Shown piece by piece: positions 24,454 through 51,164 of a stretch of DNA of 64,000 nt. Origin of the DNA: an uncultured Acidobacteriota bacterium (GTDB lineage: Bacteria; Acidobacteriota; Thermoanaerobaculia; Multivoradales; UBA5704); assembly GCA_963795735.1 (NCBI GenBank), contig CAWCIU010000008.1, positions 1,751,836 to 1,815,835 on the forward strand. Direction: 5' to 3'. Position 1 is the first letter of the stretch, and the number at the start of each line of letters is the position of its first letter. Below the pieces are notes generated by a model. The model had not been told where the DNA came from and ran no database searches. It was given only the letters and a program-made list of their open reading frames with translations. A program made the position numbers and the translations under genes.

Positions 24454-25467
24454 ATGACAAGAATCCGCCCCATGAACCTGGCGATAATCCGTGCCCTGGC
24501 GCTCCTCCTGATTCTGCTTTCCGGCGCCTTGGCGGCTCCGGCCCAGGAGCCTCCACGGGTTCCCCCCCAAGGGATCGCTCCCCAGCTCCTTGCCCCCCAG
24601 GTCATCGTGGAGGCCGCGCCCGGGCTGGAGGGGGTGGCGGCCCGGCTGCGCGGGATCGATCCGGCGCGTCTGGCGAGCGCCGTCCGCCTGGTGGGATTGA
24701 AGGCGCCGGGGCCGCCCATCCGGGTGATGCTGGCCCCCGAGGGGAGCGCGGCGGCGGCCGCCGTGCCGCCCTGGGTCTCCGGCTACGCCCTGGGAGACCA
24801 GGGATTGATCGTGCTCCTCCCCGGGCGGGTCCCGAGCTACCCCGACTCCTCGCTCTCGGACCTCCTCGCCCACGAGGTGACCCACGTGCTGATCGCCCGG
24901 GCGGCCGGAGGGGGGGACCTGCCGCGCTGGTTCCACGAGGGGCTGGCGATGATCGCCGGCCTCTCCTGGGGGATCGAGGACCGCTCCCGGCTGACCCTCG
25001 CCCTGCTGGTGGACCGGCCGATCTCGCTCGGCGAGCTCGACCAGCGCTTCGCGGGCGGCCAGGGGGAGGTCAACCGCGCCTACGCAGTGGCGGGCGCCTT
25101 CGTGCGCGACCTCTTCGACCGCTACGGCCGGCAGGTCGCCGCCCGCATCCTCCAGGGGGTGGCCCGCGGCCTCCCCTTCGACCAGGCCTTCCAGGCCGCC
25201 ACGGGAACGCCGCTCGCCGAGGCCGCTTCCGCGTTCTGGGACCGCCAGACCTTCTGGTACCGCTGGGTGCCCATCGTCACCAGCTCGGTCACCCTGTGGC
25301 TGGCCGTCACCCTGCTCGCCTTGTGGGCCATCCAGCGGCGGCGGGCGCGCGACGCCGCCCAGCGGCGGGTCTGGGACGAGGAGGAGGAGCGGCTGCGGCT
25401 GGCGGCGGAAGAGAGGGCCCGCGCCCTCGCCCAGGCCCAGGCCGAGAGCGGTGAATGGGTGAATTGA
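24454..25467 (+). CDS. peptidase MA-like zinc metalloprotease with C-terminal TM anchor
   Basis: HEVTHV...E zinc-binding motif. Signal peptide and a C-terminal hydrophobic helix. Confidence 0.45.
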   Translation: MTRIRPMNLAIIRALALLLILLSGALAAPAQEPPRVPPQGIAPQLLAPQVIVEAAPGLEGVAARLRGIDPARLASAVRLVGLKAPGPPIRVMLAPEGSAAAAAVPPWVSGYALGDQGLIVLLPGRVPSYPDSSLSDLLAHEVTHVLIARAAGGGDLPRWFHEGLAMIAGLSWGIEDRSRLTLALLVDRPISLGELDQRFAGGQGEVNRAYAVAGAFVRDLFDRYGRQVAARILQGVARGLPFDQAFQAATGTPLAEAASAFWDRQTFWYRWVPIVTSSVTLWLAVTLLALWAIQRRRARDAAQRRVWDEEEERLRLAAEERARALAQAQAESGEWVN

Positions 25468-25473
25468 CCGCCC

Positions 25474-26547
25474 TCAGATCTCCATCCGCGACACCAGGTC
25501 GCTGCTCGACCGCGTCACGTCCTCCCAGCGCCACCCCTCCTCCTCGACCAGGCCGAAGAGGAGCCGCCGGCGGTCGATCAGGGAGTCCAGGGCCAGCTTG
25601 AACTCTTCGTCCTTCACGGTGACGATCCCCGCTTCCCGCAGCGGGTCGAGGAGGGGCGAGGGCGGCGGGTTCCACGTCGGCTCGAGATGCGCCTCCGCCA
25701 GGGTCGAGAGGAACTCGGCGATCGCCTGGCGGAGGGGATAGAACGCTCCCCGGTCCGGCCGCTGCTCGGGGCAGACGCCGGCGAAGAGGGTGATCGCCTC
25801 GTCCAGCACGGCGATGCTCGGCGCCAGCGCCGTCTCCCGCGTGCTGCTGTGGACGCAGTGCAGGACGGGGTAGGCCAGGTGCCCCTGGCCGACCGACATC
25901 ATCGGCTCCGTCAGGGCGATCAGATGGTCCGGCAGCAGCCCGAAGCTGGAGCCGTTCCAGGCGCGCAGCAGGATCTCGTGCGGCGTGCGGCCCAGGGCCG
26001 TGATGTAGACCGCCAGCCGCCGCCGCTCGAGCTCGGCGCCGACGATCGGCAGCAGGTAGGTGATGATCAGGCTGACCAGCGAAAACCCGTTGGCGGCGGC
26101 GGCCAGGGTCACCAGCCGCCAGCCCGGGCTCCCGGGCCGGAATTCGGCGACGCCCAGGGTGATGATCGAGCAGCCCGCGAAGTAGGCCCGGTCCCAGAAC
26201 CCCGCCGGCTGGCCGCTCACCATTCCGACGACGGAGCGGGCCTCGCTGAGGAAGATCAGCGTCCAGCCGATCCAGACCAGGAAGACCCAGAGCACGACCG
26301 TGAACAGCACGATGAAGAACCCGAGCACCGCCAGCGCCCGGTGCGACCGGGTCACGCGCGTGGCGAGCTTCCAGAGCCCGTTGGTCACCCAGGCGGTGAT
26401 CGGCCCCCCGCTGGTGAGGCGCAGGGTGGTCCACAGGACGTCGTAGATGGTGACCAGCAGGACGCCGATGCCGAGGAGACTCAAGATGATGCGCACGCCC
26501 GCACTCTCCCTTCCCAAAGGGAGCGTCAGCAGCACGCGGCGTGCCAC
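25474..26547 (-). CDS. two-TM pore ion-channel-like membrane protein (Ion_trans_2-like)
   Basis: TM / pore-helix YFAGCSIITLGVAEF / TM arrangement, followed by a cytoplasmic domain. Weak assignment. Confidence 0.4.
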   Translation of the reverse strand: MARRVLLTLPLGRESAGVRIILSLLGIGVLLVTIYDVLWTTLRLTSGGPITAWVTNGLWKLATRVTRSHRALAVLGFFIVLFTVVLWVFLVWIGWTLIFLSEARSVVGMVSGQPAGFWDRAYFAGCSIITLGVAEFRPGSPGWRLVTLAAAANGFSLVSLIITYLLPIVGAELERRRLAVYITALGRTPHEILLRAWNGSSFGLLPDHLIALTEPMMSVGQGHLAYPVLHCVHSSTRETALAPSIAVLDEAITLFAGVCPEQRPDRGAFYPLRQAIAEFLSTLAEAHLEPTWNPPPSPLLDPLREAGIVTVKDEEFKLALDSLIDRRRLLFGLVEEEGWRWEDVTRSSSDLVSRMEI

Positions 26548-26571: not shown

Positions 26572-29500
26572 TCAGGGCGAGTCTCTGCCGAGGACCTCCC
26601 TCCAGGCGCTCTGGATGAGCCTCCTCGCCCCGGGACCCTCGCAGCAGATGGAGGCTTCGTAGCGTTGATAGCGATCCCCTTCATCCCGGACCGCCGACAG
26701 CCAGTTGAACGAGCCTTCCACGATCCAGTGGTCATCGACCGCGAGGGTCTTGCTGTGCATCCGGTTGGAGGCCACGACTTCGGCGCCGGCTTGCCGGAGC
26801 CCCTCCGCAGCCTTCAACGCCGAGGCTTTACGCACACCCTGGTTCAGGTCCACCGAATACACCACGCAGACCTGGACTCCCCGTGACCGGGCAGCTCCGA
26901 CCGCCTCCGGGATGCCGTCCGCTTCGAGAGCTCTCTCCGTGAGGAAGGGAGAGACGACGAGGACCCGGTCGGTGCTCCGGGTGAGGGCGCGGCTCAACAT
27001 CTCCCGATGACCCGCCAGGGTCGAGATGCGGTTCGTATCCTCCATGCCGACCAGATGCTGGGCGGCTTCCACGTCGGTGATCTCATGGTCCGGAGATTCG
27101 AACAGGAACCGGCCCAGCAGGCCGGAAGGCAGATGGGGCTTGTTCCTGTCGAACAGGCGGAGATCTCCGAAGACCAGGAACGAGTCCTTGGCCCTGGAGG
27201 CGGCGACGTTCAGCAGGTTCGGGCCCGCGTCGAAGAACAGGCGGTGAGGAATCTTCTGGGTCGAGGCGAGCGAATAGACCGGCGAGAAGAGCACGACCGG
27301 GCTCTCCGCTCCCTGAAAGGTATGGACGGTTCCCGCTTTGATTGCGGGCAGCCCCTGGGCCTTGAACGCGCCGGCCAGCACCCATCTCTGGGCGGCGAAC
27401 GGAGTGATGACGGCCACGATCCTCTCGATCGGGGCTTCATAGTGCCGTTCAAGATCGTCGCGATGGCGAGCGAGCCAGTCAGCGATCGCTCGGGCCTCTC
27501 CCGGGTTGCGGCGGCTTCCGGAAGAAATCTCTTCGGGCGAAGTGATATGGGCCCAGCCGAGAGGAGGCAGAATCCTCTCCTGCTTCGACGGCCTGAGAGG
27601 CCGGAGACGGTTCTTGTAGACCAGCTCGTTGCAGTACCGGATGATTTCCGGCACGCAGCGCCGGTGCTCGCCGAGGAACAGTCCCCGATCGTCCTCGCGG
27701 GTGACGGCGGTGGCGCGGCGGGCCATCAACATCAGGCTGCCCCGCGAAGCCCGGTGGGCGATCGCGTCCTCGCCGCCGTCCAGATCGGTCTCGAGACCGG
27801 CTTTGCGCAGATTCGCCGTGTCGATGGACGGACCGATCCCCCAGACCGGCTCGATCTGATGGAGATCCCCCACCACCAGTCCCCGCTTGGCCAGGGAGAA
27901 GGCGGCCGCTCCCACCTCCGGCGTCACCTGGCCGGCCTCGTCGACGATCAGGAGATCCAGGAAGTCGAACATCGGCACGTTCCGTTCCCGTCCTGGATCG
28001 AAGGAATCGAAGACCTTCGGCGACCGGTGGATCGTCGCGACGAGGCAAGGAGTGAGCTTGGCGAACCGCCGGAAGCGCTCTTCGCAGGCGGAACGGCTCC
28101 GGCGGTCCAATCTCTGGTCCGAGGCGAGCAGGCGCTCCATCTCCAGCAGCCATCGGCCCTCCCAGTACCGGCCCGCGAGCAGAAACAGCCGGTGGCGCGG
28201 TCCGCAGTCCAGCAGGTCCAGAATCAATTCGGGTCTCTCCAGGGCCTCTTTGCCGAGAGCCTGGAAATCCGATCGGTTGTCCTGGAGCTCCTCGACACGG
28301 GCGGCGAAGCGCGCCTCCAGCTCCTGCCACGGGCGGAGCTCGGGGATCTGGGATTTCAACGCATCCAGGGTTTTCCGCAGCGCATCGAGGAGGCTCCGCG
28401 CCCCGTCCGGACCGTGCACGGGCGGCGGCTCACGGCGGCGGCGAAGGAACGGCATCGAGAGATGGCGGTCCCGGTGCCGGCGGACCGGCGGCAGGAAGGC
28501 CAGCAGGTTCGTCCAGAGGGGGATGGCGCCCTCCGCCGCCAGGACCTCATCGTACAGGGCCGCCTCCTCGGCCATCCGAGCTTCCAGGGATTCGCGATCC
28601 TGGTCGATGCGCCGCCGGGCCTCCTCGGTCCCGAGGCAGCCATACCGTGTCCGCCATGCCTGGACCTCGCGAGCCTCTCCGATGCAAGCCGCGAGCTCGC
28701 CCTGGACCGCGACCAGCCGCTCCTGAAGGTGACGCACGATCTCCTTCACGGAGCCGCAGCGTTCCCGCGGCAGAACGGTCCGCGCCCGGGTGACGAAAAA
28801 GGCTTCGGCGCGCTCGACGTAGGCCCGGTTCTCCATCGACTCCGGCAGCCCCCGCCAGGGATTGCCCGGGAAGGCCTGTTGATATTTCGCCTCCTTGAAC
28901 TTGTCGGCGGAAGGGAGGTGCAGCCCATAGGCGCCGAGGTCCGGCAGCCAGCGCTCGGCCAAGGGGTCGCTCCCCTCGCAGGCGGCCGCGGCGAAGCTCT
29001 CCAGGATGTTGGTCACCGCCTGGTTGTTGGTGGAGCAGGCGAAGATGACGGGAGGCTCTCGATCGCCCAGGGCCGCTTCGACCCAGAGGGAGGCCACGAC
29101 GCTTTGCAAGAGCGTGGTCTTGCCGGTGCCGGGCGGACCGTTGACCGCCAGAATCCGGCCTGCGGCAAGCGGCAGCGCGCAATGGATCGCCTGCCTTTGC
29201 GAGGGGCTCAAGGGGAAGGATCTTCCCATCTGCCCGCAGTGTCTCGTCGCCAACGTCTCACGGCCCAGGTCGTGGGCCGAGGGGGCCGCCGCGGGCTCCT
29301 CGGCCGCTGCGAAGCTCCCAAGGAGTCGTGGAGTGGAGTCCCGGCCCAGCACCTCGTCGTAGAGCTCGATGAGGGGCCTGCCCACTCCTTTCTCGTCCTT
29401 CCAGAGCAGGACGACTCCCTGTTGATCCAGCACCCTGAAACCGTCCAGGACCAGGGCGGACGGTACGCAGTGCGCGACGGCCTGAAGCATCTGGCTCGCA

Positions 29501-30018
29501 TACCGGCGCACGCTCGTCCAATCCGCGGCTTCCGGCGGGGCCGTCTCCGTCAGGAACCGGTCGAAATCCGCCAGCGATCCAACGACAGGGCCATCGCCGG
29601 CCATCGGCTCCAGGCACTCCCGGCTCATCCACGGAAGCGCCTGGGGAGACCCTTGCAGGGAGCCGTCGGGAAGGACCAGGGCGGGTATCCAGAGCGGGAA
29701 GTATCTTTTTTTGGCGTCGCCCTTCTGAACGGTTCCGTGCTGAAAATCGCGTGCGATCGTCATGGGAGCGATCAGGATCGGCACGTAGCTCGGCGCGGCG
29801 GGCCTTTCCTCCTGGACGGTCTGCGCCCCGGCGCGAGCGCCCCGCTCGCGTTCCGCGCACCAGAAGATCTTCTGGGTCAGGGCTTGCGGGAGATTGCCGC
29901 CCACGATCTCCAACGGATGAAGAAGAAACGCGCCGTCTTCGCTCACGACGGGCGAGCGCAGGTCCGCGTCGGCAAGGCTGTTGCGCCAGTACCGGATCAG
30001 CGCCCGGGTCCGATCCAT
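26572..30018 (-). CDS. Superfamily-1 (Upf1/DNA2-like, COG1112) helicase fused to C-terminal PLD-family HKD nuclease; Mokosh type II (MkoC)-like candidate defence protein
   Basis: Walker A GPPGTGKTT, LIVDEAGQ, VVGDLHQIEP, TVHTFQGAE, VAASRAKDSFLVFGD. C-terminal HSKTLAVDDHWIVEGSFNWLS HKD motif. Confidence 0.7.
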   Translation of the reverse strand: MDRTRALIRYWRNSLADADLRSPVVSEDGAFLLHPLEIVGGNLPQALTQKIFWCAERERGARAGAQTVQEERPAAPSYVPILIAPMTIARDFQHGTVQKGDAKKRYFPLWIPALVLPDGSLQGSPQALPWMSRECLEPMAGDGPVVGSLADFDRFLTETAPPEAADWTSVRRYASQMLQAVAHCVPSALVLDGFRVLDQQGVVLLWKDEKGVGRPLIELYDEVLGRDSTPRLLGSFAAAEEPAAAPSAHDLGRETLATRHCGQMGRSFPLSPSQRQAIHCALPLAAGRILAVNGPPGTGKTTLLQSVVASLWVEAALGDREPPVIFACSTNNQAVTNILESFAAAACEGSDPLAERWLPDLGAYGLHLPSADKFKEAKYQQAFPGNPWRGLPESMENRAYVERAEAFFVTRARTVLPRERCGSVKEIVRHLQERLVAVQGELAACIGEAREVQAWRTRYGCLGTEEARRRIDQDRESLEARMAEEAALYDEVLAAEGAIPLWTNLLAFLPPVRRHRDRHLSMPFLRRRREPPPVHGPDGARSLLDALRKTLDALKSQIPELRPWQELEARFAARVEELQDNRSDFQALGKEALERPELILDLLDCGPRHRLFLLAGRYWEGRWLLEMERLLASDQRLDRRSRSACEERFRRFAKLTPCLVATIHRSPKVFDSFDPGRERNVPMFDFLDLLIVDEAGQVTPEVGAAAFSLAKRGLVVGDLHQIEPVWGIGPSIDTANLRKAGLETDLDGGEDAIAHRASRGSLMLMARRATAVTREDDRGLFLGEHRRCVPEIIRYCNELVYKNRLRPLRPSKQERILPPLGWAHITSPEEISSGSRRNPGEARAIADWLARHRDDLERHYEAPIERIVAVITPFAAQRWVLAGAFKAQGLPAIKAGTVHTFQGAESPVVLFSPVYSLASTQKIPHRLFFDAGPNLLNVAASRAKDSFLVFGDLRLFDRNKPHLPSGLLGRFLFESPDHEITDVEAAQHLVGMEDTNRISTLAGHREMLSRALTRSTDRVLVVSPFLTERALEADGIPEAVGAARSRGVQVCVVYSVDLNQGVRKASALKAAEGLRQAGAEVVASNRMHSKTLAVDDHWIVEGSFNWLSAVRDEGDRYQRYEASICCEGPGARRLIQSAWREVLGRDSP

Positions 30019-30027
30019 CGCTTCCTC

Positions 30028-31179
30028 CTAGACTTTGTTGGCCTTCAGCTCCGCCAAAGCATAATGCGTCCCGCGCCAATCGATGCCGTCGTTCCAGAGA
30101 GTCAGGACCGTCGCCCGCCAGACGATGTAGAGGAAGAGCAGGGTGGCGACGGGGAAGCCGATGCCGTGCCAGCGGCGCACCCCGGCGAGCGGGGCGTTGA
30201 TCCAGCAGAGTGAGACCAGCACCAGCACGCTCGCCAGGTTCAGCCAGCGCGTGGCCCCGGTGGTCACCAGGATCGCCAGGAACGGCCAGACCAGGAGCGC
30301 GAGCTGGATCACCGTCGCCCGCACCACCACCGAGACCCGGTAATCCACCCCGGAGAAGGCGTTCTTCATCAGCCCCTGGATCAGCTCGCGGACCGAGGCG
30401 TACCACTCCACCCGCAGCATCCCCTGGCCGAAGGCGAATTCTTGGCGGCAGCCGCCGGCCTTGAGGATCTTGCCCAGCTTGAGGTCGTCGTCCGGCCGCA
30501 TGGCGATCGTCCGGTGGCCGCCCACGGCGCGGTAGGCGGAGGCGCGGACCAGGTTGAAGGCGCCGATCCCCACGTGGTGGGGGCTCTTCGGGTCCTTCAC
30601 CTTCCAGGGCCGGGTGAACAGGGCGAAGAAGAGGGCGAAGGCGCCGATGAACATCTCGAACAGGGCGCTCGGCCGGTCGATCTCGGGCGAGGCGGTGAGG
30701 TGGTCGAGCCCGTCCGCCGCCATGGCGCCCACCGCCCGCCGCAGCACCGAGGGCGCCATCACCACGTCGGCGTCGGTGAACAGGAGGAATTCCCCCGTCG
30801 CCTTCTCCGCCCCCAGCCAGAGGGCATGGTTCTTCCCCAGCCATCCCGGCGGCAGCTCGCGCACCCGCACCACCCGCAGCCGCGGCTCCGCCGTCGCCAT
30901 GCGCTCGAGGATCTCCCCCGTGCGATCGGTGGAGCGGTCCTCCACCACCTCGATCTCCAGGTTGTCGTAGTCGAGAGCGAGGACCGAGCGCAGCGCCTCC
31001 TCCAGGTTCCGCTCCTCGTTGCGGGCGGGGATGACGATCGACACCCGCGGCAGGGGGCCCGCCAGCGGCGGCAGGTCCCTCAGGAACCGGATCGACCGGT
31101 TGCCGCGCAGGATCTCGAACGCGGTTGCCAGATGGGCGAGCAGGGTCGCCGCGGCGAGGAGGAGGAGGAACGCGGCCAT
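30028..31179 (-). CDS. family 2 glycosyltransferase
   Basis: SIVIPARNEERNL...DYDNLEIEVVEDRSTD...LFTDAD: GT2 DxD-type signatures. TM segments. Confidence 0.8.
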   Translation of the reverse strand: MAAFLLLLAAATLLAHLATAFEILRGNRSIRFLRDLPPLAGPLPRVSIVIPARNEERNLEEALRSVLALDYDNLEIEVVEDRSTDRTGEILERMATAEPRLRVVRVRELPPGWLGKNHALWLGAEKATGEFLLFTDADVVMAPSVLRRAVGAMAADGLDHLTASPEIDRPSALFEMFIGAFALFFALFTRPWKVKDPKSPHHVGIGAFNLVRASAYRAVGGHRTIAMRPDDDLKLGKILKAGGCRQEFAFGQGMLRVEWYASVRELIQGLMKNAFSGVDYRVSVVVRATVIQLALLVWPFLAILVTTGATRWLNLASVLVLVSLCWINAPLAGVRRWHGIGFPVATLLFLYIVWRATVLTLWNDGIDWRGTHYALAELKANKV

Positions 31180-31288
31180 GGGGCGGTTATCCTATCGTGC
31201 TGGTCCCGCGAAGCTCCCGATCCCGGAGATCGGACGTCGTTTCCGATCCTGGAGATCCGGTCTTCGGAACGGTGCCGGCGCCGCCGGG

Positions 31289-31355
31289 CCCCTCACCTCC
31301 CCGGCCCTCCTCTCCCACCTCCCCCCCTTCCGCCGGGAGAGGAGGGAGTGGTTAG
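31289..31355 (+). repeat. MITE/RPE-like repeat unit, forward copy (ccctcacctccccggccctcctctcccacctcccccccttccgccgggagaggagggagtggttag)
   Basis: Seen directly. Contains the internal hairpin ctcctctccc/gggagaggag. Confidence 0.8.
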
Positions 31356-31358
31356 TCT

Positions 31359-31748
31359 CTAGGAGGAATCGCGGTCGTGGTAAAGGCAGCCCAGGGCGTC
31401 GAGGAGGGCCGCGAGGTCATTCTGGACCTGGTCGTTGGTGAAGCGAAGGACCCGGTAGCCGAGAGCCTCGAGGTTCGCATCCCGATTGACGTCATGCCTG
31501 ATCTGGCGTTCTTCTGTATGAATGCCGCCGTCGATCTCCAGGACAAGCCTCATCTCGTGGCAGAGGAAGTCGGCGACGTAGGGTCCCACGGGAGCCTGCC
31601 GGCGGAATTTCAGGCCGAGGAACCGGCGGTCCCGCAGGTGGTCCCAAAGCATCTCCTCGGCCTGGGTGGAGGCGCGCCGGAGCCCCTTCGCGCGAAGCAC
31701 GGCACCAGGATTGGAAACCCGCACCGCAAAAGTATCCCACAAGCGCAA
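31359..31748 (-). CDS. DUF559 endonuclease-domain protein (Vsr-like fold), cargo of a MITE-like inverted-repeat element
   Basis: MLWDHLRDRRFLGLKFRRQAPVGPYVADFLCHEMRLVLEIDGGIH...LEALGYRVLRFTNDQV matches the DUF559 family. The gene ends 4 bp from repeat A and starts (TTG/GTG) ~7 bp from repeat B. Confidence 0.8.
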   Translation of the reverse strand: MRLWDTFAVRVSNPGAVLRAKGLRRASTQAEEMLWDHLRDRRFLGLKFRRQAPVGPYVADFLCHEMRLVLEIDGGIHTEERQIRHDVNRDANLEALGYRVLRFTNDQVQNDLAALLDALGCLYHDRDSS

Positions 31749-31754
31749 TACCCA

Positions 31755-31821
31755 CTAACCACTCCCTCCTCTCCCGGCGGAAGGGGGGGAGGTGGGAGAG
31801 GAGGGCCGGGGAGGTGAGGGG
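31755..31821 (-). repeat. MITE/RPE-like repeat unit, reverse copy, inverted partner of 31289-31355
   Basis: Reverse complement of the forward unit. Confidence 0.8.
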
Positions 31822-32039
31822 CCCGGCGGCACCGGCGTCGCTCCGGCTTCCTCCCATCTCGGGATCGGAGAAGACCGGCCGGAGAAGACGCGGTCGGAGA
31901 AGACGTGGCCGAGAACACCCGGCCGGAGAAGACCCGGCCAGAGAACCCGGCCGGAGAACACCTGGGAGGTTTCGCGAGCAAAGGCTGATCCTGCCGGCGT
32001 CAGCCCTGCCGGAACGGGGACCGTGCCGGCCGCTCCGGG

Positions 32040-32106
32040 CCCCTCACTCCCCCAGCCCCTCTCTCCCACCTCCCCCCCTTCCGCCGGGAGAGAGGGGAGT
32101 GGTTAG
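32040..32106 (+). repeat. MITE/RPE-like repeat unit, solo forward copy
   Basis: ccctcactcccccagcccctctctcccacctccccccttccgccgggagagaggggagtggttag, just downstream of the ABC permease gene. Confidence 0.75.
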
Positions 32107-32134
32107 AGGGGACTCGAGAAGCGAGGGGCCTCCC

Positions 32135-39527: not shown

Positions 39528-41597
39528 TTGCACATCTTCATGACTTCACGCCAGTCAACATCTAGTCTCCAGAGCCGAGAGATACTGCTTCTTGAGGATA
39601 ACTCCGGGGCGTCGGAGAGGCGACATCAGGTCGGCGTCTCTCGTCAAATCGTTCACTCTACCATTACCATCAGGGTGCACCGAATAAGCGGTACATCTTC
39701 GCAACTAGCTGCGAGCAGGACCTACAAAGTCGGAACCTTATCCGGCGAGCGCAATGGGCGCATCCAACTCGCTATGCGTCTCCTTGATCGGGCTAAGCCT
39801 AAGAAGGGCTGCGTCGTCGCAGCTGGGACATCCTATGGCTCTGCGGCGACCTTTTTGAGGGCGCTGTCCAATATTGGTCTGTCCTTCGTTGTTCAGGTGA
39901 GGCCCAGCACATTGCTTGACGTGCTCGGAACGAAGGCTAAACTAAGCACGGCCGGGGAGCTACTGGCTGGAGGCCAATGGGAGGCGGTGACGTTGCCACT
40001 GCTGGACGGGACAAAAGTGGACTATGTAGCTGCTAAGCTGGCAGATGTCGACCTAACCATAGGTCCCGCCAAGCTCTTTGCCGCTCGTGTCGGTGGTGTA
40101 GAGGGCGCTCAGCGGAGTACGATCATCGGCCTCTCTTCCTTTGACGCGAGCATAAGTGAGCTTGTACAGATCATCGGCTACACACGATGGATAAGGCCGA
40201 TCTCCCGGAGACAGGACAGAGCGGCACGGGGGGTAGCCGGACGTGCGGAGCCAGAAGGTAATGCAGCAACTCTGAGAGCCCGCGCCAATATCACATCAGC
40301 TCGCCAGCAGGATGATCGTGCCAGAGAGGGGAATATGTACGTCCTCGGGTACTCCCCAAGAGGAGTTCTGCAATCCTGTGGGTCAACTCTTAACGTCGCA
40401 GAGTTGTTTGCGGGCGCCGGTGGTATGGGGCTTGGCTTTCTCTTGGCAACCGGAGGAGAGGGACGCTACCGTCTCGTATATTCCGGAGAAGTGAATCCAA
40501 TCTACGTCCAGACGCTTCGAACGAACCATGAAGCATTACCGGGCGTCGTGGGCGGAGCCGGTGAAGCGCTTATTCCCGAGTATACGGAGGCGGCGGATCT
40601 GCGACGAGAGGAAACCCTGGCTAGCGTCAAAGAGGTCGGGTGCCAAAAGGGTGGCATTCACGTGCTCATTGGTGGCCCCCCATGCCAAGGATTTTCCATG
40701 GCTAATCGCAATTCTTGGCACGGTCGCAACCCGCACAATCGCCTCGTGGATGTATTTTTTAAATACGTCGAAGAGCTCCGCCCAAAAGTCTTCCTAATGG
40801 AGAACGTGCAGGGGATCCTCTGGACTCCTAAGGGAGGTAGGCCGGTCTCGGTTGTTGACGTCATAGAACGTCGTATGCGAGCGGCAGGCTACATAGTATT
40901 TCCAAAGCTACTCGACGCAGTATGGTATGGCGTGCCTCAGCATAGGACTCGCTTCTTTCTAATGGGACTCCACCGTGATCTTGGATATCGCTCCGACAGC
41001 TTTGGAGAATGGGGGCCGTTTCCTGTTCCGACGCATGGCGGAGAGTCCTCGCCGTGGGTAACGACAAGGGAAGCACTTGCCGATCTTCCCCGCATAGGCA
41101 ATGGTGCGTCGGTGGAGGATCTCGCCTATATTGACCCTTCGCCTGCTGCGCTAAAACAGAATCCATTCCTCAATTACATCAGGGATGGGGCTGAGCGTGG
41201 TTTGGTCTTTGACCACGTAACCTCTAGGCATGCTGAATATGTAATCGACCGCTATCGTAAAATACCGCCTGGCGGTAATTGGGAAAGCATCCGCGAAGAA
41301 CTATCTAACTACGCCGATGTTTCGCGCACCCACAGCAATATTTACCGTCGCCTGCGATGGGACGAACCATCTATTACGATTGGACATTATCGCAAGAGTA
41401 TGCTCGTGCACCCTAGTCAGCATCGAGGTCTCTCCCTTCGCGAGGCGGCGCGGCTGCAATCGTTTCCCGATTGGTTTCACTTCGCGGGAACAGTAAGCGG
41501 GCGTGATGGAGGAATTGTTCATAAACAACAGCAACTCGCTAATGCTGTCTGCCCGCTGGTAACGAAAGCTGTTGCAGAGTTCATCCTGCATCTATGA
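39528..41597 (+). CDS. DNA (cytosine-5)-methyltransferase with ~280-aa N-terminal extension of unknown function; DruM-like
   Basis: Motif I AELFAGAGGMGLGF, motif IV PPCQGFSMANR, ENV motif FLMENVQG, later QSFPDWFHF. Lower GC than flanking DNA. Confidence 0.8.
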   Translation: MHIFMTSRQSTSSLQSREILLLEDNSGASERRHQVGVSRQIVHSTITIRVHRISGTSSQLAASRTYKVGTLSGERNGRIQLAMRLLDRAKPKKGCVVAAGTSYGSAATFLRALSNIGLSFVVQVRPSTLLDVLGTKAKLSTAGELLAGGQWEAVTLPLLDGTKVDYVAAKLADVDLTIGPAKLFAARVGGVEGAQRSTIIGLSSFDASISELVQIIGYTRWIRPISRRQDRAARGVAGRAEPEGNAATLRARANITSARQQDDRAREGNMYVLGYSPRGVLQSCGSTLNVAELFAGAGGMGLGFLLATGGEGRYRLVYSGEVNPIYVQTLRTNHEALPGVVGGAGEALIPEYTEAADLRREETLASVKEVGCQKGGIHVLIGGPPCQGFSMANRNSWHGRNPHNRLVDVFFKYVEELRPKVFLMENVQGILWTPKGGRPVSVVDVIERRMRAAGYIVFPKLLDAVWYGVPQHRTRFFLMGLHRDLGYRSDSFGEWGPFPVPTHGGESSPWVTTREALADLPRIGNGASVEDLAYIDPSPAALKQNPFLNYIRDGAERGLVFDHVTSRHAEYVIDRYRKIPPGGNWESIREELSNYADVSRTHSNIYRRLRWDEPSITIGHYRKSMLVHPSQHRGLSLREAARLQSFPDWFHFAGTVSGRDGGIVHKQQQLANAVCPLVTKAVAEFILHL

Positions 41598-41598
41598 C

Positions 41599-43596
41599 AT
41601 GAGCTCCTTCGAAAGGTATACCCTCTGGAACTATATGTTGGCGGAGCAATGCCTGCTAACGGGTTCTAATCAAGGCGCTGTACTGCTCACGGTAACGCCG
41701 CGGATCCTCGCTGCTGCGTTGGATGAGGCTAAAGAAGGATTGCAATCACCTGAGGAGGCTGAGGCGGACTTCGTTACAGCTGTAACATTTGTTTATAAGG
41801 AACATGTGCTGCGAAGGCCAGAAAGGTTGCGAGCTTTAAAGTCGTCGGATAAGACAGAGGTTCCCTTAAGTGTCGGGTTCCTCGCTCTTTCCGTTCTCGC
41901 TGCCTACCGTATGCGTACTGATGGTGAGCGCACAGGACGGGCCTATTATGCGAGGCTTGGCGAGATGGTCGGCTGTGGGCTAGTTGGTAATTTTCCCCTA
42001 GGGTTTGATCCAGATGCATTCGTGGAATTATGGGATGAGCTGGCGCAATGGCTCGAAACTCAGTACGGCCGACGGCTTGTCCTTCCTGTGGCTGGGGGTG
42101 TGCAAAAGTTCGTAGCCTACCCTCTTGCACATGTTCCATTGCGACGAGTGGACATTGATCGACTACCGCAGTTCTTTGATTCCTACGGTTACGAGCCAGG
42201 GATGCGCGCTCCGTTGGATTCGCTTGCCTACGATCTCTATAAAGGAGCCGGTCCTTGGCGACATCTAACGAGAGTAGGTCAACGTGCTCTGGAAGATCCG
42301 GGCCGTCGTCCTTTCGTGATTCGGCAAGTCGCCCATGAACTCGAGCACTGGGATGGCTGTCGAACTGACTCATACGGCACGCGGATAGCCACCATCGCAT
42401 TGTGGATGGACATCCGTCGACGGCGGGTTCAACTCTCCTTGCTCGCCAGACGGCCCCAGGGCTTTCCTGAAGAAATTGAGAATGAAGATCTTGTTTTTGT
42501 TTCAAGCCAAGAGGGATGGTACGAGCCAATCCTGCTCGGGCCCGATGACGGTGCTCTTCTCAGTGAGGGTCTTCGAATAGACGCCTGTGCATCCGGCAGT
42601 CGCTGTCTTCTCCAGCTTCGTGGATTCACTGTCGTTCCGTTAACGCCCTCTGAAGAGTATGCGGGTCTTGTTTCGGATTCCGTCCTGCGCGCGGGCACGC
42701 GATGTGCGGTGCTCTGTGCGGAATCGATGATTGAGGATGTTTCTCGATACCTTGAGTTGCTGAACAACGGGCCCGTTTATCCTCGCCGCGATGAGAACCT
42801 ACCTAAAGGCTGGTGCCTGTTCACCGATGTCGAGCTGTCTTCCGATGCCGCTCCGCCGGTTGGCCTCGAGCGTCTCCGGGCCGAGGCCAGTATTGCTCTG
42901 GTCCCTGTGGGAGGGCTGCGCCTCGGGCGTCGTTGGACTTGGCTGGAAGGTGCATCTGCGTGCCTCAGGATCGTCGGCGCTCGTCAAGGGCTAGAAGTAC
43001 GCGTCGATGGGCAAGAGGCGAAACTGGACAGCGAAGGACATCTGCCTGCCGCTCTCTTGAGGGCCGAAGGAACGCATGTTGTTGAGGTCGGTAACCGGTT
43101 GAGACAACTGATCGCTGTACTACCTGGCGCCGTGAATCCGGAGTGCAGGTCTTGGGAATGCAACGAGCCAATTCTCAGCCGGATTCCCGTAGCAGTACCT
43201 GAGGGACATTGGGCTGTTATTGGGTCCGTACCTGGCGAACTCGCAACCGTATTTGCGTCTTCCGAAGGTGCGCTCATCCGGCCAGACTTCTTTGCCCGGT
43301 GGGCAGTGAAGATAGGTACTCGTCGTAGTGCAACCGCGCTTCATCTCCATGACGTGGGTGCCTCTTTAATGGCCGAGTGGGATAGGGATGACGTAACAAG
43401 GATTCAAGCCCCGTGTTTACGCGCGGGGTTTACTTCGGCTCAGTCGTGGGCGGAAATAATCTATCAGGCCGGAATTCGCAGACCGCATCTCGTGTGTACA
43501 TTAAAGTGCCAAGTCCAGGAGCTTGCAGCTGAATGGCGACGCTTAATGGAGAAGGCACGCTCTGTGAAGCGGGAGATAAAGAGGGGGCGCCGGTGA
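41599..43596 (+). CDS. hypothetical protein (665 aa), DruF-like position in Druantia type II-like operon
   Basis: The ATG lies 2 nt after the MTase stop. No recognisable motifs. Confidence 0.5.
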   Translation: MSSFERYTLWNYMLAEQCLLTGSNQGAVLLTVTPRILAAALDEAKEGLQSPEEAEADFVTAVTFVYKEHVLRRPERLRALKSSDKTEVPLSVGFLALSVLAAYRMRTDGERTGRAYYARLGEMVGCGLVGNFPLGFDPDAFVELWDELAQWLETQYGRRLVLPVAGGVQKFVAYPLAHVPLRRVDIDRLPQFFDSYGYEPGMRAPLDSLAYDLYKGAGPWRHLTRVGQRALEDPGRRPFVIRQVAHELEHWDGCRTDSYGTRIATIALWMDIRRRRVQLSLLARRPQGFPEEIENEDLVFVSSQEGWYEPILLGPDDGALLSEGLRIDACASGSRCLLQLRGFTVVPLTPSEEYAGLVSDSVLRAGTRCAVLCAESMIEDVSRYLELLNNGPVYPRRDENLPKGWCLFTDVELSSDAAPPVGLERLRAEASIALVPVGGLRLGRRWTWLEGASACLRIVGARQGLEVRVDGQEAKLDSEGHLPAALLRAEGTHVVEVGNRLRQLIAVLPGAVNPECRSWECNEPILSRIPVAVPEGHWAVIGSVPGELATVFASSEGALIRPDFFARWAVKIGTRRSATALHLHDVGASLMAEWDRDDVTRIQAPCLRAGFTSAQSWAEIIYQAGIRRPHLVCTLKCQVQELAAEWRRLMEKARSVKREIKRGRR

Positions 43597-44489
43597 AGTG
43601 GGACTTGCTGCTTGAGTGGATGACACACATGGGCTCGGGCCACTGGGGTGCATTCCGCGAGGCCGTGGCGGAGCTTGCCGACCCCGATGATCCTGAGATG
43701 CCGGTGCTGGCCCAGAAGCTTCGTATTGCTCTTTCGGACCTTGGCCACGTGGATTTTTTCGTTGATGGGCCCCGACGCTGGCAGGTACTGCGGCCGGCCT
43801 TAGTTGGCTTGGCTGGTAGCAACGCGCACCTGTTCGTAGGCGGTCGTACCCGGCATCTTGCCGAGAAGTTGACATCGAGCCTGCTGGAAGGTGGAGCGTC
43901 GGTATCCATCACAAAAATCAATCCCGGGCTTGCACGTATCTGCCTGGAGGGCCCACAAGAGATTCTGCGCGCGACCGCCAAAGACCTCGGGCTTGAATAT
44001 GTGCCTGTAGCCTCAGCTCTGCTTGCTTCCCGACTTCTGCCGCTGCGGCATACGATCGAGTGGGCTCCTGCTCGTCCAGAGCCGATCAACTGGGCCGTAC
44101 GATCGTGGTCGTTTGAGAGCAAAGCGTGGATTCATGGCAGGTTCGCGCGTACTGCACTAGAGTACACTAACCGGCATGGGGCAAGTAGATACATGATCGA
44201 TCTTGGCCATGCCGGCCTTCGGGACTTCAACAAGCGCGTATCCATTTACGGGGCGGCTTTTTTGAAGGGTAGGCGGATTATCCGCTACTGCTTCGAGAGA
44301 GAACGCCTTCTGGTACCCCGTTGGGCTCCACTCCCGGAGCCTTATTCCCGTGTGGCGTGCTTGGCTGGCGGGCAACTCGCCACCGTTCAGGAAGATGATC
44401 TTGTCTTTGAATCCGTCACCCCCAATATAGCGTCGATGCTCTTGATTGCACTAGGACAGGGGTATCCAAAGCACGGAGATGTTTTATGA
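43593..44489 (+). CDS. hypothetical protein (~298 aa), DruG-like position
   Basis: GTG start overlapping the upstream stop (GTGA) with RBS agaggggg. The stop overlaps the next ATG (ATGA). Confidence 0.5.
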   Translation: MKWDLLLEWMTHMGSGHWGAFREAVAELADPDDPEMPVLAQKLRIALSDLGHVDFFVDGPRRWQVLRPALVGLAGSNAHLFVGGRTRHLAEKLTSSLLEGGASVSITKINPGLARICLEGPQEILRATAKDLGLEYVPVASALLASRLLPLRHTIEWAPARPEPINWAVRSWSFESKAWIHGRFARTALEYTNRHGASRYMIDLGHAGLRDFNKRVSIYGAAFLKGRRIIRYCFERERLLVPRWAPLPEPYSRVACLAGGQLATVQEDDLVFESVTPNIASMLLIALGQGYPKHGDVL

Positions 44490-47400
44490 ATGATCCATTT
44501 TTTACATTCCACCAGCTTCGGGAGACCTACCTTCGGTATCTGGACAGCCCTTTTCGCCTCAGGTATAAGGCACTGATGGAGGAGCGTCGCACTCTCCTTG
44601 ATCGGGATCGACAGCTCTACCGAGAACCTCTCTTTGAGCCAGTCGTGCCGTATGAGTCATCGAAATTGACCATGCGAGGTGCGTGTTCGCATCTCGGGGT
44701 TTCATCTGATGTCGCAGAGTATCTGGATACCGGTGGCCTCTTTCCGTCGAGTCGCGAACTCTTCCAGCATCAATTGGATGCTTGGGAATCTTCGCGCAAG
44801 GGTGATGCCGTGATCGTGACGACGGGTACAGGGTCCGGGAAGACGGAGTGCTATCTGCTCCCAGTGTTCGCCTACCTCGTTGAGGAATCGACAAGATGGG
44901 GTGCGCCATCGGCACGCTCGCCTCACTATCTCTGGTGGTCTCACCCACGGCAGCAACGTATCCCGCAGCGTGCCCACGACACTGGTCGAGCTAAGGCTCT
45001 TCGCGCACTTTTTTTGTACCCGCTTAATGCGCTTATCGAGGATCAGCTAGGGCGGATACGCACGGCTTGTGATGGTCCCAATGGACGGCGGTGGCTGACG
45101 AACTGCCGGGCCGGAAACCGTTTTTGGTTCGGGCGCTATACGGGTGCCACGCCTGTTTCGGGGCCCCAAACCAACGCTAAGCGACAAGAGTTGAAGCGGC
45201 GCCTGCAAGACATAGAAGATGAGTGGGATCGTGCCCGACTTTCCGCTGCCCGATCCGGTAACGATGACATTCTCTCCTATTTCCAAGACCCTGATGGAGC
45301 GGAAATGTGGTCTCGCTGGGATATGCAGGAGGATCCGCCGGACATTCTCATCACTAACTATAGCATGCTTAACATTATGTTAATGAGGAGCCTGGAGAGT
45401 GACGTATTCGACCAGACGAAGGCGTGGCTCGCGCAGGATCGCGACAGGAATGTGTTTCACCTCGTTGTGGATGAGCTCCATACCTATCGAGGCACACCCG
45501 GAACTGAAGTAGGCTATCTGCTTCGCGCATTGCTGCACCGCCTCGGCCTAACTCCGGACTCGCCGCAGCTTCGAATTATTGCGACAAGTGCTTCGATTGA
45601 TGCAAATGATCCAGGAAGTACCGAATATTTGGAGGAATTTTTTGGGAGAGACCCATTGACCTTCAAGATCATCGAAGGGAAGCGGACTGCCTTCTCAAGC
45701 GGAAGCGGCACGCGAAGTGCTCAGCCCTTCGTTGTCTTCGGACAGGGGCTCGAGGAAGGAACTCTCGCTACTGCCGTCGCACGCCTCGCGGCTGATACAG
45801 GTGTTATACCGCGAGAGTCGAGTCCCGAGCGTCGGCTGGCCGAGGTACTCAGCACCACCGGTGTTATGGAGCTGGTGCGTTGCGAAGGAGAGCAGGGACC
45901 ATTTACGAGCACGCGCCTTGGAGAGTCCCTCTTCGGGACAGATCCCGATGCAGGGGTAGCTACCCATGCCATAATTAGGGGGCTGATCCTCGCGCGGGAG
46001 GTACGGGGTGGGTTAGAAGTCGCTCCTCTTCCCCTCAGAGTACATTACTTTTTTCATAATGCTGGGCGGCTTTGGGTCTGCGTTAATCCACAGTGCTCTG
46101 GACGTACAGGGACCACGTCACCGGGTGCCGAGGTGCCTCCGGTTGGTAGACTCTATGTTGAGCCGCGGCCGCGCTGCGAAAACTGTAATGCCCGCGTACT
46201 CGAGCTTCTATATTGTCAGCCGTGTGGAGAGGTTTTTGTTGGTGGCTATCGTGCCGAAGATTGCAACATCAATAATGCATGGTTTCTATCGCCTGACTTT
46301 CCCGACCTGGAGCATGTCCCAGACCGGTCGACCTCACCAAAGAGGATTCACATTGAGTACCTTGTTTTCTGGCCCGCAAACGGGCGACCATTGGTGCGCA
46401 GTAATCATGCGGGCCCATCTTGGGGGTGGCAGCAAGACGGGCAGGCAGGCTATCAGTGGCGCCCGGCCTCGCTCGACATGGTGGAAGGCCGCCTCTCTCT
46501 AAGCCCGCCCCGGCGCTCCACTAGCCCATCCGAGATAGCAGGTTATGCCTTCATTGCTCCTTTGGCTCATGCCGATGCTTTTCCTGCAAAGTGTCCCCAC
46601 TGTGCGGCAAACTGGGGCAGGCGCCTTGGTGTTAAGTCTCCGATCCGAGATCTCGGATCTGGTTTTCAACGCATCATGCAGATTCTCGGCGACGCACTCG
46701 TACGTGAGATTCCTGAAGGACCGGGCCGGAAGCTGGTTCTTTTCTCAGATTCCCGACTTGATGCAGCGAAGCTCTCAACGGGGATCAAGCTCGCACATTA
46801 CAGGGATACTCTCCGCCAGATCGCATTTGAGACTCTTGGTACGGCGGGCACTGCGGCAAAGCGACTTCATCAGGAGAATCAGGAGATATCTCAGCAGGCG
46901 ATTGAGCTGTACGCCTTGCTACAGAAGCGGGAGGCGGAAGGCCTCTCCGACCGAGAGAATGCACGCCGGAAAGAGCTGATGAGCGCCCTTCCTGGAAGCA
47001 TCGTTGGGGATCTTACAAAGTACGCAGTGACAGGTGGAACTCCTCCCAATGTTCTCGTGCCTCCGGTGCCTCCTGGGGCTCTCATATTCATGCCCTTCCG
47101 ACAGCTCATCGATCTTGTACGTACGCAATTGTTCTCCAAGGGTATAAACCCGGGCGGCCCGTTGCCATCAGTCGCGACATACCAGCCTCAGCGAAGTGGA
47201 CCAAAAGCCTTGTGGACAAATCTTCTCGACTGGTCGACAGCTCAGCCAAACTATCAGGCCGGTCTGCAGCCTCTGGAGCGGAACCTTCAAGCGAGCATCG
47301 AGGTCTCTCTTCGCGAGAACGTTATATCCAGCGTTCTCTTTGCATCAGCGGCAAGAGACTTCGAGTCTCTGGGGCTCGGCTACTTGTGGACCAGCAACGT

Positions 47401-50550: not shown

Positions 50551-50787
50551 ATGGGAGTCTACAACGTTCACGAAGCCAAGACCCACCTCTCCCGTCTGCT
50601 CGAGCGGGTGGCCGAGGGAGAAGAGATCATCATCGCGAAGAGTGGCCGGCCGGTCGCCAAGCTGGTGCGCGTGGCGGTCGAGCCGCGCCGGCCCGGACGG
50701 CTGAAGGACCGCATCCGGGTCGGCCCCGATTTCGACGATCCCCTTCCGGAGGAGGTCCTGGCCGCTTTCGGCGGGGACAAGGAGTGA
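50551..50787 (+). CDS. Phd/YefM-family antitoxin
   Basis: MGVYNVHEAKTHLSRLLERVAEGEEIIIAKSGRPVAKLV is typical Phd/YefM. Confidence 0.75.
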   Translation: MGVYNVHEAKTHLSRLLERVAEGEEIIIAKSGRPVAKLVRVAVEPRRPGRLKDRIRVGPDFDDPLPEEVLAAFGGDKE

Positions 50788-51164
50788 GGCTCCTCCTGGA
50801 CAGCCATGCCTTCCTCTGGTGGCTCGCCGAGGACCCGAAGCTCAGCGCCGGAGCCCGGGAGGCGGTCGCCGATCCCTCGTCGATCGTCCATGTCAGCGCC
50901 GCGAGCGTCTGGGAGCTTGCGATCAAGGCGTCTCTCGGGAAGCTGGATCTCGACGGCGCGGACCTGGTGGAGGAGATCGAGGAGAATGACTTCGTCGAGC
51001 TCCCCATGAGGGCGAGGCACTCGCTCGCCGCCGCCACCTTGCCCCGCCATCACGAAGACCCCTTCGATCGCATGCTGATCGCCCAGGCTCAAGTGGAAGG
51101 CCTGACGGTCGTCACCCGCGATCCCGCCTTTCGGGCCTATGGGGTCGCCATCCTTCCGACCTGA
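50784..51164 (+). CDS. vapC: PIN-domain toxin VapC
   Basis: GTG start overlapping the antitoxin stop (GTGA). LLDSHAFLWW...ASVWELAIK...PFDRMLIAQA is typical VapC. Confidence 0.75.
   Translation: MRLLLDSHAFLWWLAEDPKLSAGAREAVADPSSIVHVSAASVWELAIKASLGKLDLDGADLVEEIEENDFVELPMRARHSLAAATLPRHHEDPFDRMLIAQAQVEGLTVVTRDPAFRAYGVAILPT

Follow-up and report, generated by a model that had tools for sequence, protein, structure and literature searches.

Mokosh defence systems are divided into two types. According to Millman et al. (2022; 10.1101/2022.05.11.491447), Mokosh type II consists of one gene that encodes an N-terminal COG1112/Upf1-like helicase and a C-terminal phospholipase D (PLD) domain, and mutants of the ATP site and of the PLD site abolish Mokosh defence. 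The type II protein has been described as a monomer of ~132 kDa which in one panel protected only against a single-stranded DNA (ssDNA) phage. Type I Mokosh is evaded by T-even phages by means of DNA glucosylation and the Alt ADP-ribosyltransferase. Besides, Cury et al. proposed that the combination of helicase and PLD parallels MOV10L1 and PLD6, a pair known from PIWI-interacting RNA (piRNA) biology. In the present study we analysed a stretch of 64,000 nucleotides (the window) from an uncultured Acidobacteriota bacterium, in which the original prediction, a reading of the bare sequence, had proposed a 1148-residue fusion of a superfamily 1 (SF1) helicase and a PLD nuclease resembling the Mokosh type II protein MkoC. 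Our results argue that this gene likely encodes a functional MkoC, a single-protein defence enzyme directed against phages or mobile elements.

The comparison with MkoC that had been suggested was run with PADLOC, and the protein matched the MkoC profile (PDLC03924) from end to end (residues 3-1142 against profile positions 4-1132 of 1136; E=0, 1033 bits). The match includes the N-terminal region (residues 3-270). Profiles of the type I proteins MkoA and MkoB matched partially, over the helicase (688-958, 4e-33) and the PLD domain (1000-1142, 8e-18), respectively. As the published architecture is the same as well, the type II-like reading was borne out. The open reading frame (ORF) starts with ATG and runs through 1148 codons without interruption. 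Its GC contents at the three codon positions (GC1/GC2/GC3 = 0.70/0.49/0.83) follow the coding pattern GC1>GC2<GC3, and the ORF list, the translation and this coding signature agreed with the frame and the HKD string given by the original prediction. Homologs start with the same MDR...YWR residues, and a Shine-Dalgarno sequence, GGAGGA, is located 4 nt 5' of the ATG and shares the last base of the stop codon of the preceding glycosyltransferase gene, GT2. In Pfam, AAA_11 (270-344), AAA_12 (777-952) and PLDc_2 (1010-1106) were found above the gathering thresholds, and a scan of NCBIfam returned no model at cut-off. The ratio of non-synonymous to synonymous substitution rates (dN/dS) of 0.21-0.41 indicates that MkoC is under purifying selection. 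Homologs are abundant (over 2300 clusters at 90% identity), and their phyletic distribution is patchy; a search of genome contigs yielded only relatives of ~30% identity, none of them syntenic. Judged by its sequence, the gene belongs to the Mokosh type II family as a full-length and ordinary member.

An antisense open frame of 1068 residues (27007..30213, plus strand) overlaps MkoC. Such long antisense ORFs are common at the GC content of the window (~68-70%), and we regard this one as a high-GC shadow ORF and not as a gene because the coding signature and all homology lie on the minus strand.

Conservation of the motifs was scored on an alignment of 110 full-length MkoC homologs, from which we also built an AlphaFold2 model (predicted local distance difference test, pLDDT, 93.7; predicted template modelling score, pTM, 0.91). 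The SF1 motifs I, Ia, II, III, IV, V and VI, which the original prediction had described as recognisable, could all be read and are invariant or near-invariant in homologs; the residues of motifs I, II, III, IV, V and VI and of HKD/GSFN that are listed in Table 1 are all present in intact form, each being invariant or conserved in at least 90% of the homologs. In a Foldseek search the folds closest to the motor were SETX, IGHMBP2, UPF1, Aquarius, DNA2, Sen1 and ZNFX1 (E from 7e-19 to 2.5e-12), helicases whose substrates are RNA, RNA:DNA hybrids or ssDNA; SETX, IGHMBP2 and UPF1 came first, with E values on the order of 1e-19 to 1e-16. When the full protein was searched against PDB sequences, IGHMBP2 was the sole match. 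As modelled, with these motifs and a two-RecA fold, the helicase is of the Upf1-like SF1B type. The possibility that the protein is a RecD-like housekeeping helicase was rejected, as it scored 23.8 bits against RecD2 (cut-off 500) and 15.5 bits against RecD (cut-off 310), and RecD2 (3gpl) appeared only at rank 50 of the fold search (E=9e-8). Motif Ia is separated from motif II by an insertion in which 11 helices are modelled between residues 398 and 655.

The HKD string HSKTLAVDDHWIVEGSFNWLS corresponds to MkoC residues 1088-1108 (nt 26695-26757). Profile matches of the PLD domain comprise Nuc (1byr, 2.7e-6), Zucchini/PLD6 (4ggj, 2.8e-5; 9lkx, 3.1e-5) and NucT. Accordingly, the HxKx4D and GSxN of MkoC could be aligned with those of Nuc and Zucchini/PLD6, so that the motif does belong with PLD nucleases as had been proposed. 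No second HKD motif was seen in the MkoC translation, which leaves one motif per chain.

For the N-terminal ~270 residues the original prediction had named no known domain. This was also our result, since a Pfam scan gave no match within residues 1-269, and a Foldseek comparison with solved PDB folds found none either (best E=0.45). The domain is modelled with a pLDDT of 84, and its invariant columns include Y10, W11, G41, R133, P138, W167 and H260. A profile of the domain retrieves 1006 cluster representatives; in the best 150 of these 1006 it begins within about the first 130 residues, and the proteins are of helicase length or are fragments. Many proteins with this domain have ~900-1000 residues and are too short for a PLD domain (P0124, P0130, P0131, P0139, P0143, P0144, P0150 and others, with L102 noted alongside them). 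These may be fragments truncated by contig ends or real split variants with a separate nuclease. P0031 (1009 residues, no PLD) is uninformative on such a split, as only 81 bp of contig remain beyond the end of its gene.

MkoC is preceded on the same strand by housekeeping-looking genes for an ABC ATPase, an ABC-2 permease and GT2, and the GT2 stop codon lies 9 bp from the MkoC start. The original prediction thus correctly placed a glycosyltransferase next to MkoC, whereas its description of a core-GC region without an island held only in part: GC3 is 0.83 in MkoC versus 0.95-0.96 in both neighbours, the regional GC falls to 0.67-0.68, and the site is empty in a related genome. Six syntenic loci place the MkoC start 4-17 bp beyond the stop codon of GT2. 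The order ABC ATPase, ABC-2, GT2 and MkoC recurs in each of the five distinct contexts that we examined (P0006 at L013/L014, P0007 at L015 from a Thermoanaerobaculia metagenome-assembled genome, P0017 at L016, P0009 at L017/L018 and P0003 at L099). Where the contig is long enough, MkoC is followed by a channel-like gene in some loci and then by Peptidase_MA_2/M23. GT2 is 77-85% identical across loci; the nearest homologs of the window MkoC are only 50-55% identical to it and nevertheless syntenic. The related genomes that share this junction are probably Thermoanaerobaculia-like (Acidobacteriota).

Empty sites were then sought on metagenome contigs that were retrieved through the conserved GT2. 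In L020, a contig of 375 kb whose flanks are 74-92% identical to the window, the GT2 stop codon and the end of the convergent peptidase gene are ~10 bp apart, with neither MkoC nor the channel gene in between. Other loci carry other cargo at the junction, namely a metallo-beta-lactamase (MBL)-fold gene in L019 and in L023 ~6 kb with an extracytoplasmic function (ECF) sigma factor, a Gp49/helix-turn-helix (HTH) toxin-antitoxin pair and other genes. The GC3 of the cargo (window, 0.83; L016, 0.75; L019, 0.81) is below the 0.91-0.96 of the backbone. Since the junction is empty in L020 and differently occupied in L019 and L023, it behaves as a hotspot of variable cargo in which MkoC is accessory. 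Moreover, in L016 two further genes accompany MkoC and the channel gene (12924-16542 of L016). One encodes a SIR2_2-HATPase_c protein of 765 residues, the other an Mrr-like (Mrr_cat) nuclease that matches the PADLOC candidate system PDC-S02 (1e-44). Therefore, the junction between GT2 and Peptidase_MA_2 gathers defence genes. The variable hotspot, the empty site in a relative, the deviating GC3, the occurrence of homologs on plasmids and a Druantia system 9.5 kb away together argue that MkoC is accessory cargo and not a core gene.

The next relatives, P0018 and P0020 (46-47% identical), are no longer syntenic, and their MkoC is located upstream of a MoxR/CoxD-like AAA gene. In L100 (8001-12378) and L101 (8001-12391) an AAA gene of 300-314 residues follows within ~50 bp, beside CO-dehydrogenase or XdhC-type genes. 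Possibly, a different lineage has a second fixed site of insertion here; alternatively, the AAA gene may be a partner.

Within the window, neither the flanks of the MkoC cassette contained direct or inverted repeats suited to attachment (att) sites or transposon ends, nor was an integrase or transposase found by MkoC, and the 64 kb hold no transfer RNA. PADLOC gave no convincing defence match for the neighbours of MkoC, the ABC ATPase showing generic ATPase-domain matches only. Between ABC-2 and GT2 we observed an insert of ~950 bp (31265-32110) that is specific to the window and absent from L013. It carries a DUF559 endonuclease-like gene of 129 residues (31359-31748, minus strand; Pfam 2.2e-35) 1.2 kb upstream of MkoC, bounded by 92-nt inverted repeats (31265-31356 and 31754-31845) that are 96% complementary. 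A third copy of the repeat is found at 32017-32110 and tandem repeats of 14-15 nt at 31860-31965, and the insert looks like a small mobile element. The Druantia system comprises four genes (39528-50020, plus strand) in an island with a GC content of 0.55-0.58 compared with ~0.70. At the right edge of this island lies a PIN-domain gene (50784-51164, plus strand; 2e-18), which may be the toxin of a toxin-antitoxin pair marking the island border. The coordinates of all features are compiled in Table 1.

Table 1. Features of the MkoC gene and its surroundings, in window coordinates.
Feature	Position	Strand	Evidence
MkoC (Mokosh type II) gene, 1148 residues, stop codon included	26572..30018	-	ORF list and translation, PADLOC MkoC, AlphaFold2 model
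Shine-Dalgarno GGAGGA	30023..30028	-	direct sequence reading
N-terminal family-specific alpha/beta domain, residues 1-268	29215..30018	-	MkoC profile, domain model
Helicase RecA1 first part, residues 270-397	28828..29211	-	Pfam AAA_11/AAA_30/AAA_19
Walker A GPPGTGKT, residues 294-301	29116-29139	-	G294-T301 invariant in 110 homologs
Motif Ia STNNQAVTN	29008-29034	-	sequence reading
All-helical RecA1 insertion, residues 398-655 (~260 residues)	28054..28827	-	model secondary structure
RecA1 second part and RecA2, residues 656-960	27139..28053	-	Pfam AAA_12, invariant columns
Motif II DEAGQ, residues 693-697	27928-27942	-	conservation in 110 homologs
Motif III VGDLHQIEP (G717/D718/Q721/P724)	27847-27873	-	conservation in 110 homologs
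Motif IV (H785/R787)	27628-27675	-	conservation in 110 homologs
Motif V GTVHTFQGAE (G896/H899/Q902/G903)	27304-27333	-	conservation in 110 homologs
Motif VI NVAASRAK (N937/V938/S941/R942)	27187-27210	-	conservation in 110 homologs
C-terminal PLD-family nuclease domain, residues 995-1148	26575..27036	-	Pfam PLDc_2 1.5e-9
HKD motif H1088-x-K1090-x4-D1095...G1102-S-F-N1105	26695-26757	-	at least 90% conserved in 110 homologs
GT2 glycosyltransferase, 5' anchor of hotspot	30028..31179	-	Pfam Glycos_transf_2
Ion-channel-like membrane protein, downstream neighbour	25474..26547	-	weak Pfam Ion_trans_2, 2.9e-5
Peptidase_MA_2 gene, convergent, 3' anchor of hotspot	24454..25467	+	Pfam
DruM-like C5 cytosine methylase	39528-41597	+	Druantia island
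DruF	41572-43596	+	Druantia island
DruL4-like gene	43533-44489	+	Druantia island
DruE	44486-50020	+	PADLOC DruE4 E=0, 1803 bits

The history of MkoC differs from that of its surroundings. Across the loci the flanking proteins are 64-92% identical, compared with 50-55% between MkoC and the window allele. Between the window and L013 the nucleotide identity is 0.80-0.90 through GT2, drops to 0.48-0.77 from the exact start of MkoC and rises again within the channel gene. At least four deep lineages, 50-59% identical to each other, can be distinguished among the syntenic alleles; alleles within group A share 65-85% and those within group B 68-87% identity, and the window allele and P0003 are each singletons. 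The flanks place the window backbone among the group-A genomes, whereas its MkoC is equidistant from A and B. Synonymous divergence (dS) reaches 0.93-1.30 in MkoC compared with 0.27-0.77 in the flanks. Since the flanks have extreme GC3, mismatches at four-fold sites were normalised to composition-specific saturation. This gave 0.81-0.86 for MkoC and 0.44-0.53 for the flanks in the comparison of the window with L013/L016, by which weak codon bias as the mere cause of the high dS was rejected for the window allele. A synonymous divergence above that of the flanks points to a hotspot cassette that was exchanged or maintained for a long time. The simplest reading would be that the MkoC alleles are older than the backbones carrying them, either by allele replacement through recombination in the conserved flanks or by long-maintained polymorphism, in addition to faster evolution of the protein. 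The alleles differ most in the N-terminal domain (residues 41-240) and in the helical insertion (401-600); in the sliding analysis, conservation was 0.32-0.47 at residues 401-600 and 0.6-0.77 in the motor and PLD domains. This pattern can guide the study of how Mokosh recognises infection, and the fixed site, the empty-site relative and the deep lineages offer a natural experiment on the diversifying pressure across MkoC. A more far-reaching interpretation, which we regard as unlikely, is that MkoC is a long-lived allelic cassette under balancing or frequency-dependent selection which has been wired into the ABC-2/GT2 envelope operon as part of a composite anti-phage module, with specificity residing in the N-terminal domain and the insertion. 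If it were true, nuclease defence and a surface-glycan function would be co-expressed, and the divergence of the lineages would predate the host backbones.

MkoC is probably co-transcribed with GT2, because the gap is short, a Shine-Dalgarno sequence is present and no promoter-like or terminator-like site was found in the GT2-MkoC interval. Such an arrangement would also suit a domesticated housekeeping helicase-nuclease which, like senataxin, UPF1 or DNA2, acts in RNA or R-loop surveillance or repair, is co-expressed with ABC-2/GT2 and has no role in defence. Purifying selection, the eukaryotic RNA-quality-control helicases as closest solved folds and the fixed site in six loci for MkoC proteins that differ by 45-50% fit this explanation, too. 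It is nonetheless quite improbable, as a housekeeping role is at odds with the empty site amid the closely related flanks of L020, the other cargo in L019 and L023, the foreign-like GC3, the synonymous divergence exceeding that of the flanks and a window allele standing apart from those of its closest backbones. Besides, the patchy phyletic distribution, the plasmid-borne copies and the match over the full length to a defence family validated by experiment contradict it.

The channel-like gene directly downstream of MkoC on the same strand is present in the window, L013/L014 and L016, is absent from L015, L017, L099 and L020, and was found at this site only alongside MkoC in the loci sampled. 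MkoC could accordingly be the nucleic-acid sensor of a two-gene system with the channel-like protein as, for example, a membrane-depolarising effector. We give this very little credence, as MkoC occurs without the channel gene in L015, L017/L018 and L099 and type II Mokosh as published comprises one gene with a monomeric product. In addition, the channel gene has no PADLOC match, and its host-like GC3 (0.96) and flank-like dS (0.33-0.42) indicate a history different from that of MkoC. Because of these backbone-like values and its absence from three MkoC loci the channel-like gene is probably not part of the system. Its pore reads TLGVAEF, the canonical sequence being TVGYGD.

MkoC homologs were also found on 66 plasmids, and 40 of these 66 records are conjugative or mobilizable; the plasmid-borne proteobacterial homologs that were found are only ~33% identical to the window MkoC. 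MkoC might therefore mainly restrict plasmids and other mobile elements instead of phages, or be exchanged as a selfish cassette with little benefit for the host, in a hotspot that gathers toxin-antitoxin and other selfish genes and with the DUF559 mini-element nearby. Against this, validated members of the family protect against phages, and the window cassette has no transposase, integrase or repeats beside it, which makes either version highly improbable. Finally, that MkoC is a decaying relic without function, for which nothing specific speaks and only the missing signal of an own promoter could be cited, is next to impossible with an unbroken frame of 1148 codons, intact catalytic residues, the dN/dS found and a very confident AlphaFold2 model.

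For MkoC as a single-protein defence enzyme the following mode of action could be envisaged. The protein would be translated from the transcript of the upstream ABC-2/GT2 operon via its own ribosome-binding site and would hence be made constitutively. The SF1B motor would load on single-stranded phage RNA, RNA:DNA hybrids or ssDNA replication intermediates and translocate in the 5'->3' direction using ATP. The choice of substrates or phage factors to be recognised may lie with the variable N-terminal domain and helical insertion; alternatively, phage inhibitors may target these two parts. Cutting of the nucleic acid by the C-terminal PLD domain would follow. In Nuc and Zucchini the catalytic centre is built from two chains. 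Given the one HKD motif per MkoC chain and the monomeric state of the purified type II protein, two MkoC molecules are probably required for cleavage, and they would form the cleavage site upon meeting on the substrate; this might serve as a safety catch against self-damage.

Several points weigh against the interpretation of MkoC as a defence enzyme acting in this way. The literature searched contained neither a mechanistic paper on Mokosh type II nor a published target, helicase polarity or nuclease substrate of any Mokosh, and a review of 2026 describes Mokosh as incompletely characterised. The steps concerning substrate, dimerisation and sensing are therefore put forward as a proposal. The gene lies within an operon of housekeeping appearance, has no detectable promoter of its own and occurs at the same site in six loci, a pattern that is less typical of defence genes. 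Moreover, the unbiased GT2-anchored sample of the hotspot was small (three informative loci), and in the pair L015-L017 the excess of normalised divergence of MkoC (0.72) over the flanks (0.53-0.72) was marginal.

Compared with known systems, MkoC shares most with Mokosh type II: it is a single chain in the range of ~1130-1150 residues with an N-terminal region, an SF1 helicase and a PLD domain, in which the residues required for defence are intact. It differs in its high-GC, Acidobacteria-like host and in its location in a hotspot of an ABC-2/GT2 operon instead of a classic multi-system island. Mokosh type I has a homologous helicase core in MkoA and a homologous PLD nuclease in MkoB. However, it consists of two genes and its MkoA contains a Ser/Thr kinase, whereas here a single gene without a Pfam kinase match was found. 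Membership in type I was ruled out by the fusion in one gene, the lack of a kinase and the partial matches to MkoA and MkoB. The motor fold and the SF1 motifs are shared with the Upf1-like SF1B helicases senataxin/Sen1, IGHMBP2, UPF1, Aquarius, DNA2 and ZNFX1. Identity to these is only 12-16%, and MkoC adds the long helical insertion, an unrelated N-terminal domain and the PLD fusion; DNA2 likewise carries a nuclease, which is however of the PD-(D/E)XK type. With Nuc (1byr), Zucchini/PLD6 (4ggj) and NucT the protein has a single HxKx4D and GSxN in common. In contrast to Nuc and Zucchini, which are free-standing homodimers, the PLD domain of MkoC shares its chain with a helicase, and the type II protein is reported to be a monomer. 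Hachiman HamAB, Gabija and DruE of Druantia III, whose mechanisms have been solved, resemble MkoC in the principle of a helicase sensor that licenses a nuclease. They belong to other helicase superfamilies or nuclease folds and are composed of several subunits, and no sequence relationship to MkoC was detected beyond the P-loop motifs.

Taken together, type I or RecD-like features are absent, and every feature of Mokosh type II that can be checked in a sequence is found in the gene. The interest of the locus is modest and lies in its phylum, in the fixed hotspot with an empty-site relative, in the deep alleles and in an N-terminal domain without a solved match; in addition, a high-confidence model of a full-length MkoC is provided. 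The finding leaves the understanding of Mokosh type II as a kind of system unchanged and extends this validated but mechanistically unsolved family into a poorly studied environmental phylum of high GC content.

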